6,003 nt of DNA from a virus (Duplodnaviria > Heunggongvirae > Uroviricota > Caudoviricetes), in the IMG/VR virus record IMGVR_UViG_2541047173_000020; one strand, written 5' to 3'. The first letter of the stretch is position 1, and every line of letters begins with the position of its first letter. Made by a program: the position numbers and the translations under genes. The notes beneath the pieces were generated by a model, which was given only the letters and a program-made list of their open reading frames with translations, was not told the origin of the DNA and did no database searches. This document shows, piece by piece, positions 2,847 through 5,998 of this stretch.

Positions 2847-3356
2847 TTAGCGAACTTCAAAAAGAGACTGCATCCATTCATAACCTTCAGGGTATCGACG
2901 CTGTTCGCATTCTGGTATCGCGCCATAGTGCTCTCTCAATAATTGAAGTGCGTCATCTCTCTTTTTCTGAACTGATTTTCTTGCTTCAACCAGCTCTGGA
3001 ATCAGCGAATATCCCGCCGGAAGTGATCCAATACCCACCTCATGTTGACGAGCAGTTACAAGATGTGCCATACAACCAGCGTGCTGGATTGACTCCCTGC
3101 TCAGAGGCTGAATGGGATCACTCTCTGCTGAAGAAATACCAAGATTTGTATAATCCTCAATAAGCCCGGCACACGCTTCTGCATCAGCCAGCTTTATTCT
3201 GGTTTCCTTGCGCTGTTCTCTGGCTGACAAACGCCAGAGCAGCGCATTAGCTTTATGTATCAACCACTCTGCCAGCTCCACATCAGATAAACCGCCACGC
3301 CAGATGTGCGGACTGTTTTCGTAAACGCTCAGTGTCAATTTTTTGTCATTACTCAT
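2847..3356 (-). CDS. Hypothetical protein, 169 aa, function unknown (extra gene between the CII-like gene and the replication initiator)
   Basis: ATG at 3354-3356 (MSNDKKLTLSVYENSPHIW...) lies 13 nt after the ydaT-like stop (3370-3372), same strand, so likely co-transcribed; the track ORF (2847..3407, 186 aa) begins further upstream inside ydaT. By hand count, first-codon-position G is about 34% here against about 26% for the overlapping plus-strand ORF, favouring this strand. SD is weak. No family recognised. Confidence 0.6.
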   Translation of the reverse strand: MSNDKKLTLSVYENSPHIWRGGLSDVELAEWLIHKANALLWRLSAREQRKETRIKLADAEACAGLIEDYTNLGISSAESDPIQPLSRESIQHAGCMAHLVTARQHEVGIGSLPAGYSLIPELVEARKSVQKKRDDALQLLREHYGAIPECEQRRYPEGYEWMQSLFEVR

Positions 3357-3369
3357 ATTTATTACCCAA

Positions 3370-3795
3370 TTAATGCACAGCCAGAGTGTTTCCTGCCGGG
3401 CCACCACGATTCATCTGATCGAACAGAACGATCGCTGATGCAACGAAATCATCAATATCTTTCACCAGCCGTTCCTTCGTCTCTACCAACTCCCGAAAAT
3501 AAGCGGAACTGTGGCTGCGCATTCGGGCCACCAGCGGAGGCGGCATCGCTTTTTCGATCGCTGGTAACAACGCCTGAATTTTTTTAACCGCATCAGGAGT
3601 GTCTTTCTCCACCCAGCGGAAAATTTTCTGAGTATTGCGAGCCATGGCTTCCGGATGGCTGTCGTCATACAGTTCCGGGAACGTCATTCCCAGCTCGAAA
3701 TACGCTTTGGTAATTTTCGCAGCCGGTACTTTTTCGCCGTCCGGATGCGCCCAGACATTCATCGCCATGCGGATGTGTTCATGCTTGATTTTCAT
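3370..3795 (-). CDS. ydaT: YdaT-like protein (proposed CII functional analog of Rac/CP-933P-type prophages), 141 aa
   Basis: Start MKIKHEHI... matches my recollection of the YdaT family N-terminus; sits directly downstream of the Cro-like gene with an ATGA start/stop overlap (ATG 3793-3795, TGA 3792-3794). GGAG lies 7 nt upstream. Family call is from memory, not a search. Confidence 0.75.
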   Translation of the reverse strand: MKIKHEHIRMAMNVWAHPDGEKVPAAKITKAYFELGMTFPELYDDSHPEAMARNTQKIFRWVEKDTPDAVKKIQALLPAIEKAMPPPLVARMRSHSSAYFRELVETKERLVKDIDDFVASAIVLFDQMNRGGPAGNTLAVH

Positions 3796-4094
3796 GAATC
3801 AACTCCATCAGATAAGCATGCACTACAATCACCTTCAGCATGAACTACATGTGTTTGCCCCAAACGAATGCCGCTCGCATACTCAGGCCAAATAAGCTCC
3901 CAATCATGGGGTCGTAGCTCCGCCCTACTTACTTGGCCTTCCGTCGCAGATTCGATCATAAGGGCGCGGGTTGGAGATATAGCTGTTCGTCCAGACGCCA
4001 TTTGCGATAAGTAAGATGGCGATACACCAAGTCTGGCCGCGAATTTCTTAGCATCACCAACCCTTAATGATTTAATAAACTCTTTTAATGTCAT
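3792..4094 (-). CDS. ydaS: Cro-like HTH regulator (YdaS family), 100 aa
   Basis: N-terminal HTH-like segment AKKFAARLGVSPSYLSQMASGRTAIS; GAGGAAGG SD directly upstream of the ATG (4092-4094); first gene of the minus-strand operon, divergent from the repressor-like gene, which is the classic cro position. Confidence 0.85.
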   Translation of the reverse strand: MTLKEFIKSLRVGDAKKFAARLGVSPSYLSQMASGRTAISPTRALMIESATEGQVSRAELRPHDWELIWPEYASGIRLGQTHVVHAEGDCSACLSDGVDS

Positions 4095-4122
4095 ACCTTC
4101 CTCGGTTTAGTGTTTTTTTGCG

Positions 4123-4152
4123 AGTTTAGTGTTTAATAAACCATTAAGTCAA
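4123..4152 (-). promoter_or_regulatory. Putative pR-like promoter for the ydaS operon (TTGACT, 18-nt spacer, TAAACT) overlapping operator motifs
   Basis: On the minus strand the -35 TTGACT is plus 4147-4152 and the -10 TAAACT is plus 4123-4128. The perfect palindrome GTTTA-A-TAAAC (4131-4141) lies in the spacer. TTTAGTG motifs occur at 4106-4112 and 4125-4131. Inferred from consensus only. Confidence 0.4.
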
Positions 4153-4156
4153 GTAT

Positions 4157-4185
4157 TTGCTTGTTTAGTGATTACTAAAGATAAT
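4157..4185 (+). promoter_or_regulatory. Putative pRM-like promoter for paaR2 (TTGCTT, 17-nt spacer, GATAAT), predicted to give a leaderless or near-leaderless mRNA
   Basis: -35 TTGCTT at 4157-4162 and -10 GATAAT at 4180-4185; the ATG of the regulator is at 4192 with no SD upstream. The spacer contains the inverted repeat TTTAGT-gatt-ACTAAA (4164-4179). Confidence 0.45.
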
Positions 4186-4191
4186 TACCAC

Positions 4192-4563
4192 ATGCAAAAA
4201 AAAGAAATTCGCCGTTTACGTCTCAAGGAGTGGTTTAAAGATAAAACTCTGCCACCCAAAGAGAAGAGCTACCTATCTCAACTAATGAGTGGGAGAGCCT
4301 CGTTTGGAGAAAAGGCTGCCAGAAGAATAGAGCAAACATACGGGATGCCGGAAGGGTATCTGGATGCGGAATACGCAGAACAACCGGGGGGTTCTCCACC
4401 ACATGCAGGGTTAACGTCTAATCAACTGGAATTATTGCAGATTTTTTCAGCCTTCCCTGAGGATGAGCAACGCCAGATAATCAGCGAGTTAAAGCAGAAA
4501 AAAGAATCAATGGAAGATCTCATAGCGAGATGGATTGCGGCGCAAAAATGCCGCCGCGCCTGA
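4192..4563 (+). CDS. paaR2: CI-type HTH transcriptional regulator, PaaR2-like (first gene of the three-component TA operon; putative prophage repressor analog), 123 aa
   Basis: MQKKEIRRLRLKEWFKDKTLPPKEKSYLSQLMSGRASFGEKAARRIEQTYGMPEGYLD resembles a phage CI-repressor-type HTH domain with no S24 peptidase domain. Divergent from the cro-like gene and followed by antitoxin and ParE toxin genes. The track start at 4129 is a GTG inside the operator region and is judged unlikely. Confidence 0.8.
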   Translation: MQKKEIRRLRLKEWFKDKTLPPKEKSYLSQLMSGRASFGEKAARRIEQTYGMPEGYLDAEYAEQPGGSPPHAGLTSNQLELLQIFSAFPEDEQRQIISELKQKKESMEDLIARWIAAQKCRRA

Positions 4564-4583
4564 GTTATAAAACCGGAGGAAAC

Positions 4584-4775
4584 ATGAATAGAGCCCTTTC
4601 ACCAATGGTTTCTGAATTTGAAACCATTGAACAAGAAAACAGTTACAACGAATGGCTGCGTGCGAAAGTAGCAACGAGCCTTGCAGATCCGCGCCCAGCA
4701 ATTCCCCATGACGAAGTTGAGCGCAGAATGGCAGAACGCTTTGCTAAGATGCGCAAGGAACGGAGCAAGCAGTAA
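4584..4775 (+). CDS. paaA2: Antitoxin of a ParE-family toxin, PaaA2-like, 63 aa
   Basis: GGAGGA SD at 4575-4580, ATG at 4584; 63-aa charged product (MNRALSPMVSEFETIEQENSYNEWLRAKV...) directly upstream of and almost abutting the ParE-like gene (stop TAA 4773-4775, next ATG 4777). Size and gene order match the PaaA2 antitoxin as I recall it. Confidence 0.85.
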   Translation: MNRALSPMVSEFETIEQENSYNEWLRAKVATSLADPRPAIPHDEVERRMAERFAKMRKERSKQ

Positions 4776-4776
4776 A

Positions 4777-5055
4777 ATGTTACCCGTGTTATGGCTTGAA
4801 AGCGCAGATACCGACCTAGATGATATAACTAGTTATATTGCTCGTTTCGACATAGATGCGGCTGAACGCTTATGGCAGCGATTAAGGGGTTGTGTGCTGC
4901 CGTTATCCGAACATCCGTATTTATACCCACCAAGCGACAGAGTACCTGGCTTGCGTGAGATTGTAGCCCACCCTAACTATATAATTCTATACCGCGTAAC
5001 AACATCAAGCGTTGAAGTAGTAAACGTGATCCACGCAAGACGCCAGTTTCCCTAA
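4777..5055 (+). CDS. parE2: ParE/RelE-superfamily toxin, ParE2-like, 92 aa
   Basis: Product MLPVLWLESADTDLDDITSYIARF...REIVAHPNYIILYRVTTSSVEVVNVIHARRQFP has the size and layout of ParE toxins; starts 1 nt after the antitoxin stop. Confidence 0.85.
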   Translation: MLPVLWLESADTDLDDITSYIARFDIDAAERLWQRLRGCVLPLSEHPYLYPPSDRVPGLREIVAHPNYIILYRVTTSSVEVVNVIHARRQFP

Positions 5056-5073: not shown

Positions 5074-5120
5074 ACATAACAACCGCAACGACTTTATCAA
5101 AAGCGTTGTGTTTGTTATGT
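5074..5120 (+). terminator. Imperfect hairpin downstream of parE2, possible terminator (tIMM analog) or protein-binding inverted repeat
   Basis: Arms 5074-5090 (acataacaaccgcaacg) and 5104-5120 (cgttgtgtttgttatgt) pair at 15 of 17 positions around a 13-nt loop; a T-rich run (tttagttttt, 5128-5137) follows about 8 nt later. The stem is AT-rich and not a textbook intrinsic terminator. Confidence 0.3.
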
Positions 5121-5139: not shown

Positions 5140-5167
5140 TTGACTTAAGTTTAATGTTTATTAAACT
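5140..5167 (+). promoter_or_regulatory. Putative pL-like promoter (TTGACT, 16-nt spacer, TAAACT) with operator palindrome; an inverted copy of the pR block
   Basis: -35 TTGACT at 5140-5145 and -10 TAAACT at 5162-5167; palindrome GTTTA-T-TAAAC at 5156-5166. The reverse complement of 5135-5166 closely matches 4125-4153 (shared ...GTTTAATAAAC..ATTAA..TTAAGTCAAGTA). Confidence 0.4.
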
Positions 5168-5485
5168 AAAAATACCAACCCACCCCGCCCCACAGAACGC
5201 AGGGAAATACTTCGAGTTACCAAGCAGTGGTCAGGGGGTAAGTAGCCAGCCCGAGGCGTATGAACATGACGGCAGGGTTCAACTTTAATAACTATGCAGC
5301 AGTTTTTTGTTCCGCTACCCCGGCGTTAAGGGGAAACAGAGGGTTTCTCAGTGGGCGAAGTCAAACATCAGAATGGAAGGCATCCCGGGATCGGCAAAGA
5401 AGCAGCAATGGCGCTTTATATTGACATCAGCGCCATTGCAGGACAGGTAAGAGTTATCAGAGCGGTAACTAAGCGGTATGCGCCT

Positions 5486-5686
5486 TTACTTCAGAAAGTC
5501 TCTGGTGAGTGCACCGAAGATATTGTCAACGATTTCGTCATCGAACTGCGAGGACTCATCTTCAGTTACAAGGTGACCACAATTTTTGCAGATGGCTCCC
5601 GCGAAACTGTCAGAGCCCTGCGGCTTAAAGGATGTGTCAAAGACTTCGCCACCACATTCTGGGCAAGAAAACTTGATTGTATTCAT
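5486..5686 (-). CDS. Small zinc-ribbon protein, 66 aa from the ATG (two CxxCG knuckles: CPECGG and CKNCGH), function unknown
   Basis: ATG at 5684-5686 with GAGAGGAAA SD about 7 nt upstream; the track start at 5692 is a TTG. Cysteine pairs are spaced in a classic zinc-ribbon pattern and the C-terminus is acidic. An overlapping plus-strand ORF (5351/5408..5707) exists, so strand assignment is uncertain; second-codon-position composition (hand count A 22, T 18, C 14, G 12 of 66) mildly favours this strand. Confidence 0.5.
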   Translation of the reverse strand: MNTIKFSCPECGGEVFDTSFKPQGSDSFAGAICKNCGHLVTEDESSQFDDEIVDNIFGALTRDFLK

Positions 5687-5779
5687 AACCAATTTCCTCT
5701 CGAGTAACAGACCCCTCAGAGGATACCACCTCGCCTGACGTGGTTAAAAAGCAGGCAACGCTAACCACAAGGAGCCGAC

Positions 5780-5998
5780 ATGCAGAAACGAGACCCCGTC
5801 ATCATCGCGCCAGACTATACCGATGATGAACTTTATGAGTGGATGCACCAGAAAATTAAGGCGGTGCAGGACCTGAAATGGGCCAATGAAGCCAGGGCTA
5901 AGCAGGCTGAAAATCTGTCCGCTCTGGAGCAGGATATCACCAATCTGGAAAAAGCAGCGGCATTAAGCATTGCCAGAATGATTACATACCCACGTTAA
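5780..5998 (+). CDS. Hypothetical small phage protein, 72 aa (early-left operon candidate)
   Basis: AAGGAG SD at 5770-5775, 4 nt before the ATG at 5780; complete ORF with TAA at 5996-5998. Product MQKRDPVIIAPDYTDDELYEWMHQKIKAVQDLKWANEARAKQAENLSALEQDI... is predicted helical or coiled-coil-like. No family recognised. Confidence 0.7.
   Translation: MQKRDPVIIAPDYTDDELYEWMHQKIKAVQDLKWANEARAKQAENLSALEQDITNLEKAAALSIARMITYPR

Follow-up and report, generated by a model that had tools for sequence, protein, structure and literature searches.

Positions 5408–5760 of the stretch of DNA analysed here appear, on balance, to form a small mobile cassette found in lambdoid prophages, in which each strand of the same DNA holds a protein-coding gene. 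The stretch, hereafter the window, comprises 6,003 nucleotides (nt) of IMG/VR virus record IMGVR_UViG_2541047173_000020 and is the immunity region of a cryptic lambdoid prophage from Escherichia coli O157:H7, named CP-933P in strain EDL933 and Sp12 in strain Sakai (window position x corresponds to x+2338791 in EDL933 CP008957.1). One of the two open reading frames (ORFs), here called the zinc ORF, encodes a putative C4 zinc-ribbon protein of 66 amino acids on the minus strand (5486–5686, with the ATG at 5686 and the stop codon at 5486–5488; MNTIKFSCPECGGEVFDTSFKPQGSDSFAGAICKNCGHLVTEDESSQFDDEIVDNIFGALTRDFLK). The other, the forward ORF, encodes 99 amino acids on the plus strand (ATG 5408 to 5707); it heads the ORFs of the early-left operon, and the zinc ORF is nested entirely within it on the opposite strand. 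Both had been described in an earlier note on this DNA, and the elements it listed are present as described: a minus-strand ORF with two CxxCG knuckles and a good Shine-Dalgarno sequence, and a plus-strand ORF running from GTG 5351 or ATG 5408 to 5707 in the shadow frame. That note held that one of the two is probably real, whereas the comparative data favour protein-level selection on both. Our confidence in the cassette, which lies slightly on the favourable side, applies to it jointly with the propositions that the zinc gene has its own promoter and is expressed in the lysogen.

As judged from comparisons with its relatives, the zinc ORF is almost certainly a real gene. Its product contains two CxxCG knuckles, CPECG (C8, C11 and G12) and CKNCG (C33, C36 and G37), followed by an acidic C-terminal helix, and it corresponds to ECs_2282 of O157:H7 Sakai (NP_310309.2), with the same strand, length and position in Sp12. 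The NCBIfam model NF047912 (ECs_2282_CxxC) matched the protein with 57.3 bits (E=1e-15; cutoff 37) over residues 4–59 and profile positions 1–56 of 60. The ORF is thus a member of a family whose entry gives only the name "putative zinc-binding" and no hint of nesting, and the annotation pipeline PGAP calls it an "ECs_2282 family putative zinc-binding protein" in O157 Sakai, EDL933, TR01 and other O157 genomes. In Pfam, it matches generic zinc-ribbon models below their cutoffs only. Homologues with 60–70% identity were found in Citrobacter, Klebsiella and Enterobacter, others with 48–56% identity in Serratia and in metagenome contigs, and the most distant ones, with about 29–34% identity, in Klebsiella and Enterobacter phages. 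The four cysteines (C8, C11, C33 and C36) are kept in every examined full-length family member, with the lone exception of P0002, where the segment is garbled. At three of the four cysteine codons, TGC and TGT are interchanged, which amounts to Ala/Thr changes in the forward frame, and the third base of the forward codon opposite a cysteine codon is always A.

The pattern of sequence change points in the same direction. In a gap-free alignment of seven diverged sequences, pairwise omega was 0.2–0.3 in the zinc frame and 0.45–0.87 in the opposite frame, and among 29 haplotypes of the E. coli lineage 18 of the 26 polymorphic sites in the overlap fall at the wobble position of the zinc frame. Over the segment occupied by the forward ORF only, the equivalent antisense frame has synonymous differences (pS) equal to or below nonsynonymous differences (pN), so the low omega of the zinc frame is not a carry-over from the opposite strand. 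The combination of a zinc ribbon and an acidic helix suggests a small protein that binds or inhibits a host or phage protein or a nucleic acid. A search with PADLOC gave no significant match for the zinc protein, the best being the candidate model PDC-M14A (E=0.0019, 16.5 bits). A partial second copy of the zinc ORF, covering residues 32–66 with 100% identity, was observed in another prophage of EDL933 (CP008957.1, 1848616–1848723), and O157 genomes contain 3–5 matches to this segment.

The forward ORF is probably a real gene as well, again on comparative grounds. PHROG 21318 matched its product with 224.5 bits, from residue 1 to 99 over profile positions 1–99. DNA homology across genera starts at ATG 5408, and the relatives carry a GGAG-type Shine-Dalgarno sequence there. 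In codons 2–26, which lie outside the overlap (5411–5485), pS was 0.5–0.8 and pN 0.13–0.35 in the forward frame; an excess of pS over pN in this segment was limited to the forward frame and the antisense frame that shares its wobble position, the other four frames having pS equal to or below pN. Homologues of the forward protein occur at distances matching those of the zinc-protein homologues. The plus-strand ORF, and not the zinc ORF, is the one annotated in phage records of RAST, DDBJ and Prokka style. The earlier note had reasoned that conserved homologues for the plus-strand product together with a lack of homologues for the zinc ORF would speak against the latter; conserved homologues of the plus-strand product do exist, but the zinc ORF has homologues too, and homology therefore cannot separate the two ORFs.

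A start at GTG 5351 would extend the forward protein to 118 amino acids. The possible N-terminal extension (5351–5407) is preceded by an AGAGGG Shine-Dalgarno sequence upstream of the GTG, and annotations of RAST type use this start. As a conserved start, the GTG proposed in the earlier note was rejected: homology begins at ATG 5408, no homology over the extension was found in the Citrobacter, Klebsiella and Enterobacter loci, and within the extension the 29 E. coli haplotypes show 10 nonsynonymous polymorphisms to 1 synonymous. The extension thus looks unconstrained and is probably no conserved part of the protein. Longer forward ORFs were observed elsewhere, of 174 amino acids in Citrobacter freundii (L090/L091, 4995–5519) and of 126 amino acids in one Enterobacter locus (L094, 5094–5474). 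Their N-terminal extensions have a KTIK..TF motif in common, the Enterobacter extension has a CKSCG of its own, and both types retain an internal Shine-Dalgarno sequence and ATG at the usual start. Modelling of the 99-residue protein with AlphaFold2, based on an alignment of 7 sequences, gave a model of moderate confidence (predicted local distance difference test, pLDDT, 67.6) with three successive helices, a β-hairpin and a final helix. The forward protein had no match in PADLOC, and profile searches against PDB sequences gave no match for either protein.

The overlap itself was examined for signs of double coding. The two frames are codon-aligned in antisense, with position 2 opposite position 2 and the minus-strand wobble opposite plus-strand position 1 (the "shadow" frame), an arrangement in which a stop codon in either frame can arise solely from TTA, CTA or TCA in the other. 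The triplet 5486–5488 is read in both, as the TAA stop of the zinc ORF and as the TTA codon of forward Leu27. In lineages with the H-type knuckle, Leu27 is always encoded by the rare TTA or CTA and never by the common CTG, because these lineages without exception end the zinc ORF with TAA or TAG; L109 ends it with TGA, corresponding to TCA on the plus strand. Insertions and deletions in the cassette are multiples of 3. The forward frame was open across the whole overlap in all eight lineages that had been found via the zinc protein, a sample unbiased for the forward ORF. With the zinc protein and the local codon usage taken as given, such a frame would be open by chance with a probability of 0.05–0.37 per lineage, and the product over lineages is 1e-7 if all eight are independent and below about 0.003 at three to four effective lineages. 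Reciprocally, the zinc frame was open in both lineages found via the forward protein.

Substitutions were placed by parsimony on a neighbour-joining tree of 33 haplotypes of these recombining prophage segments and compared with Monte Carlo expectations. The 127 substitutions silent in the zinc frame were milder in the forward frame than random zinc-silent changes (mean BLOSUM loss −3.89 vs −5.02; p<0.0002) and created no forward stop codon, where 5.9 were expected. The same held in the reciprocal direction, as substitutions silent in the forward frame were mild in the zinc frame (−3.98 vs −5.30; p<0.001) and created no zinc-frame stop (3.7 expected). In the control, forward-silent substitutions in the forward-only segment were unbiased toward the non-coding antisense frame (p=0.82). 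The results were stable for kappa values of 1–5, for the diverged lineages alone and for codons with single hits only. Taken as they stand, these sequence comparisons favour purifying selection on both frames within the overlap.

The pair is found as a unit of about 350 base pairs (bp) in prophages of E. coli, Citrobacter, Klebsiella, Enterobacter and Serratia. In all loci, the zinc ORF opposes the early operon and is overlapped by a longer ORF that is co-directional with the operon. Most copies lie just downstream of an S24-type repressor gene, on the pL side; in two relatives (L088 and L089) the unit is placed immediately downstream of cro, on the pR side. At the Enterobacter locus L093, a SieB-family gene adjoins the zinc gene on the same strand. 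The full-length module was present in 937 of 3012 matching records, the others including short matches limited to approximately 5720–5757. A scan of viral contigs with the zinc alignment returned 80 near-identical E. coli loci, which were used for polymorphism only. The same alignment gave two spurious partial matches only in a scan of genome contigs, and scans of viral contigs with the distant forward proteins P0038 and P0039 gave no matches.

Two loci with a damaged forward ORF were also observed. One is a divergent cassette beside a molybdopterin oxidoreductase gene on a 4-kb contig (L102, 3095–3298), the only uncoupled ORF pair seen. The other is the locus of strain 2015C-3101 (NZ_CP027221.1; L005, 3109–3410), where PGAP treats the forward ORF as a pseudogene with a frameshift and leaves the zinc ORF uncalled; this locus is a case of cassette decay in a cryptic prophage.

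The zinc gene is preceded by conserved signals on its own strand. Its Shine-Dalgarno sequence, AGAGGA, lies at 5695–5700 on the minus strand, 8 nt upstream of the ATG; 12 of 13 lineages, all but L108, have AAGGA or AGGAG 7–9 nt before the zinc ATG, and in most relatives this site lies outside the forward ORF. From the alignment of these 13 lineages, we infer a minus-strand promoter of the zinc gene at 5720–5747, with the −35 element TTAACC (5747–5742), a 16-nt spacer and the extended −10 element TGgTATCCT (5728–5720). The predicted transcript would start at about 5713 and have a 5′ untranslated region of about 28 nt. The consensus over the lineages is TT(A/C)ACC, 16 nt, TGnTAT(C/T/G)(C/T)T: the −10 element fits TAnnnT in 13/13 with variation at positions 4 and 5 only, and TGn is present in 11/13. 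The fixed positions are thus the most important ones of an extended −10 element and the varying positions the least important. The promoter scan missed this candidate because just 8 of the 12 hexamer positions match the consensus, which places it below the threshold. Another minus-strand promoter that the scan did flag, at 5703–5676, was discarded, as it overlaps the zinc ATG itself.

Two potential stems are found in the same region. An inverted repeat or hairpin, TCCTCT...AGAGGA (5695–5723), is situated just past the last sense codons of the forward ORF and over the predicted zinc −10 element. Its arms vary with complementarity kept, being TCCTCT/AGAGGA in E. coli, TCTTGG/CCAAGA in most other lineages, TGCTGG/CCAGCA in L108 and CGGTTCC/GGACCG in L088/L089; this covariation was read by eye, as MAFFT misaligned the stem in the RNAalifold input. 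Since the stem covers the predicted −10 element and start, it would form only in plus-sense RNA, or act as an inverted repeat in DNA. The second stem, GCCTG...CAGGC (5733–5756), lies inside a 37-bp segment (5720–5757) common to many E. coli prophages and shows a compensatory change in L098, where one pair is altered on both sides (GCCGGG/CCCGGC). A CACACA loop was seen to be conserved in most non-E. coli lineages (L088–L108) within the 5695–5756 region. The stems do not constitute an intrinsic terminator, as they lack a T-run, and a search of the whole window against Rfam (E≤1) gave no match for them, the sole hit being a microRNA at chance level at 5074–5120.

Transcription of the forward ORF would begin at a pL-like sigma-70 promoter on the plus strand (TTGACT-16-TAAACT, 5140–5167). 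The promoter had been proposed in the earlier note and was recovered by the promoter scan, and the zinc ORF is indeed oriented against it. It is overlapped at 5148–5167 by a perfect palindrome, AGTTTAAT-gttt-ATTAAACT (in full AGTTTAATgtttATTAAACT), a relative of which, with 3 mismatches, is located at 4123–4142 in the intergenic region between paaR2 and ydaS (repressor/cro). Two or more matches to the palindrome occurred in none of 200 shuffled sequences, and on account of the palindrome and its related copy the promoter is a credible repressor-controlled early-left promoter. Operator-like repeats of the GTTTAGTG/AGTTTAAT type were observed more widely in the paaR2–ydaS gap (4105–4182) as well as over the pL-like promoter (5148–5167), an arrangement that would fit OR and OL sites for a single repressor. 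Downstream of the promoter, a leader motif (GTAGCCAGCCCGAGGCGTATGAACATGACGG, 5232–5275) was noted; similar leaders, e.g. GTAGCCGCCCGAGGCGCATGAAGATCGGGG, are found in the Logan metagenome contigs L098 and L101 and in Serratia L100, and the motif may be a conserved RNA or regulatory element of such early-left operons. It is followed by a junction with a small stem (CCCCGGCGTTAAGGGG, 5300–5336) that is common to the region upstream of ydfA in the K-12 prophage Qin and also gives a short match in further E. coli genomes; it forms the left border of swapped cassettes, which carry either ydfA-ydfB or the nested pair.

The remainder of the window carries further genes. On the minus strand it encodes a DnaC-like ATPase (785–1531), an O-like replication protein (1538–2740), an ORF of 186 amino acids (2847–3407; PHROG 8304, without a Pfam match) that shares 38 nt with the 3′ end of ydaT, YdaT (3370–3795) and the Cro-like YdaS (3792–4094). 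The repressor PaaR2, the antitoxin PaaA2 and the toxin ParE2 are encoded on the plus strand at about 4192–5055, and PaaR2, YdaS and YdaT have been described as the respective CI, Cro and CII equivalents of CP-933P (PMC8630535). Beyond the nested pair, the next gene of the early-left (dicB-type) operon is ydfC (5780–5998, plus strand; named YdfC by PGAP), which is almost identical to ydfC of K-12 Qin. Directly past ydfC, the Sakai genome contains ECs_5735, a minus-strand ORF of 54 amino acids that opposes the early-left operon (NC_002695.2, 2250468–2250632); given its strand, minus-strand transcription across antisense ydfC into the zinc gene is conceivable.

From this arrangement, a mode of action for the cassette can be proposed. 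The forward gene would be read first in the repressor-controlled early-left operon, or in the early-right operon in the two relatives with the pR-side position, and its product would be made only after derepression, from pL or pR. The zinc gene, by analogy with sieB, would be driven by a promoter of its own in the lysogen, when pL is repressed. Because transcription would be convergent and the messenger RNAs fully complementary, expression of one gene would depress that of the other, resulting in mutually exclusive protein outputs. The antisense regulation at this locus suggested in the earlier note is plausible in general terms, but mutual antisense control of the two genes in this specific form is put forward tentatively. 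We would likewise regard as a possibility, and a fairly speculative one, that the cassette is an old, horizontally mobile unit yielding two proteins from one duplex, with one product for each of the two opposite states of the prophage switch.

Several observations weigh against the interpretation of the cassette as two coding genes, and many of them would fit an alternative in which only the zinc ORF is a gene, the forward ORF is an unusually persistent shadow ORF and 5408–5485 serves the zinc gene as a 3′ untranslated or regulatory region. We consider this alternative rather unlikely, though it deserves to be taken seriously. PGAP and NCBIfam annotate the zinc ORF alone, and among possible frames the codon-aligned antisense one is the most likely to remain open. 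The forward family is narrow, with 7 clusters at 50% identity, two of them distant, in a profile search of 1.84 billion representative proteins; profile searches identified no Pfam or PDB relative of the forward protein, and a Foldseek comparison of its model with the PDB gave no match at E<0.1. The zinc frame has the lower omega and dominates the E. coli polymorphism, where the forward frame shows no purifying signal within the overlap (5 synonymous to 21 nonsynonymous changes) and a weak one in the forward-only part (5 to 11). In L102, the forward N-terminus is frameshifted and the zinc ORF intact. The recombination among the segments used in the substitution test, the low-confidence AlphaFold2 model of the zinc protein (pLDDT 54.8, too poor for a fold search) and the sub-threshold score of the predicted zinc promoter also count against the proposed cassette. 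On the other hand, a mere shadow ORF does not account for the large excess of pS over pN in the forward frame in 25 codons outside the overlap, nor for a forward start codon and Shine-Dalgarno sequence placed exactly at the border of homology. Zinc-silent changes avoid forward stops and are conservative in the forward frame, with an unbiased control region. None of the 8 lineages found via the zinc protein has a stop in the forward frame across the overlap, although the chance of an open frame is limited in each, and whether the unit lies on the pL or the pR side, the forward ORF invariably runs with the early operon.

If both ORFs are coding, the antisense layout could still be devoid of regulatory meaning. 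The zinc gene would then be read from a distant minus-strand promoter, shared for instance with the ORF beyond ydfC or, as in L093, with sieB, and the 5720–5757 element would serve the plus-strand transcript between the forward ORF and ydfC in processing, stability or antitermination. The two stems with compensatory changes agree with such a role, the first of which overlaps the predicted −10 element and start and could form in plus-sense RNA only, as does the presence of the 5720–5757 segment in many prophages that lack the cassette; possible upstream neighbours are available in ECs_5735, on the minus strand past ydfC, and in the L093 sieB gene, which precedes the zinc gene on the strand that they share. 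What makes this explanation improbable is the pattern of a functional extended −10 element, with TAnnnT invariant, positions 4 and 5 free and TGn with a free n, and the retention of TATxCT in L088/L089 despite unrelated sequence further upstream. A scenario with the forward ORF as the sole gene and the zinc ORF as a chance shadow ORF would agree with the direction of the operon and with the phage records of RAST, Prokka and DDBJ style that call the forward ORF alone. It is highly improbable and, as far as comparative data go, close to refuted: the four cysteine codons are always kept, demanding A as the third base of four forward Ala/Thr codons, zinc-frame omega is 0.2–0.3 with pS equal to or below pN in the equivalent antisense control, forward-silent changes are conservative in the zinc frame, the zinc Shine-Dalgarno sequence is conserved outside the forward ORF, and the NF047912 score exceeds its cutoff.

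The reading as a cassette of two coding genes was further compared to known systems. A convergently transcribed gene inside an early operon had been called unusual in the earlier note, but phage lambda has a SieB-family ORF opposite pL that abuts N and lies next to the first pL gene, like the zinc gene here, and SieB stands beside the zinc gene in L093. The sieB gene of lambda and P22 is a superinfection-exclusion gene expressed from the prophage. It shares no sequence similarity with the zinc gene, and SieB differs in being a membrane protein of about 170–190 amino acids that is not nested; a role of the zinc protein in exclusion could be proposed by analogy only. Genes that oppose pL are classical, and the notable and rarely documented part of the arrangement is its probable nested double coding. 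Convergent transcription inside a lambdoid early operon is also known from lambda OOP/cII, and in L088/L089 the cassette follows cro, in the slot that cII-type genes occupy in other phages. OOP, a 77-nt non-coding RNA complementary to the 3′ end of cII, reduces cII expression by way of RNase III, whereas an antisense transcript at the present locus would encode a conserved protein. In the K-12 prophage Qin, ydfA-ydfB occupies the same slot between the dicB-operon promoter and ydfC and has the left junction (5300–5336) in common with the cassette, but its sequence is unrelated and it consists of two tandem small ORFs on the operon strand, with no antisense ORF.

Bacterial antisense embedded genes have been reported in enterohaemorrhagic E. 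coli (nog1, asa, pop and ano) and in Pseudomonas aeruginosa (olg1 and olg2) (e.g. PMC9927249, PMC7103648, PMC8850804). They resemble the present pair in that an ORF is embedded antisense in another and both are claimed to be translated or selected; judged by their abstracts, the published cases are mostly young, lineage-restricted ORFs in well-known conserved genes, with mainly expression-based support. In the pair described here, by comparison, both ORFs are short, are co-conserved in at least five genera down to approximately 30% identity and reside in a mobile cassette, and the support is evolutionary. A search for precedents found no nested antisense pair with both partners co-conserved across at least five genera, and a literature search found no paper mentioning ECs2282. 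The partial second copy in EDL933 corresponds, by BLAST match, to an entry in a list of embedded antisense ORFs given by a 2020 preprint (Table S12). The coordinates of the present locus are absent from the lists of expressed antisense embedded ORFs in that preprint, which is uninformative because it is unclear which ORF was annotated and several copies of the segment exist in O157.

Annotation pipelines allow one gene per locus and are split in this case, with PGAP choosing the zinc ORF and RAST- and Prokka-type annotation the forward ORF, so that either choice drops a protein that is probably real. Reports of overlapping antisense genes in bacteria are contested because most of them rest on the expression of young ORFs; the pair in CP-933P/Sp12 provides the opposite kind of support, namely deep co-conservation and reciprocal signatures of selection, and is open to simple genetic tests by means of frame-specific stop codons that are silent in the other frame. 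If true, a conserved antisense nested pair would represent a new type of accessory toggle in lambdoid immunity regions. In O157:H7, the cassette heads the early-left operon of a prophage that contains the bistable PaaR2-PaaA2-ParE2 module and dicB, and owing to this placement its products may bear on prophage maintenance, exclusion and induction.

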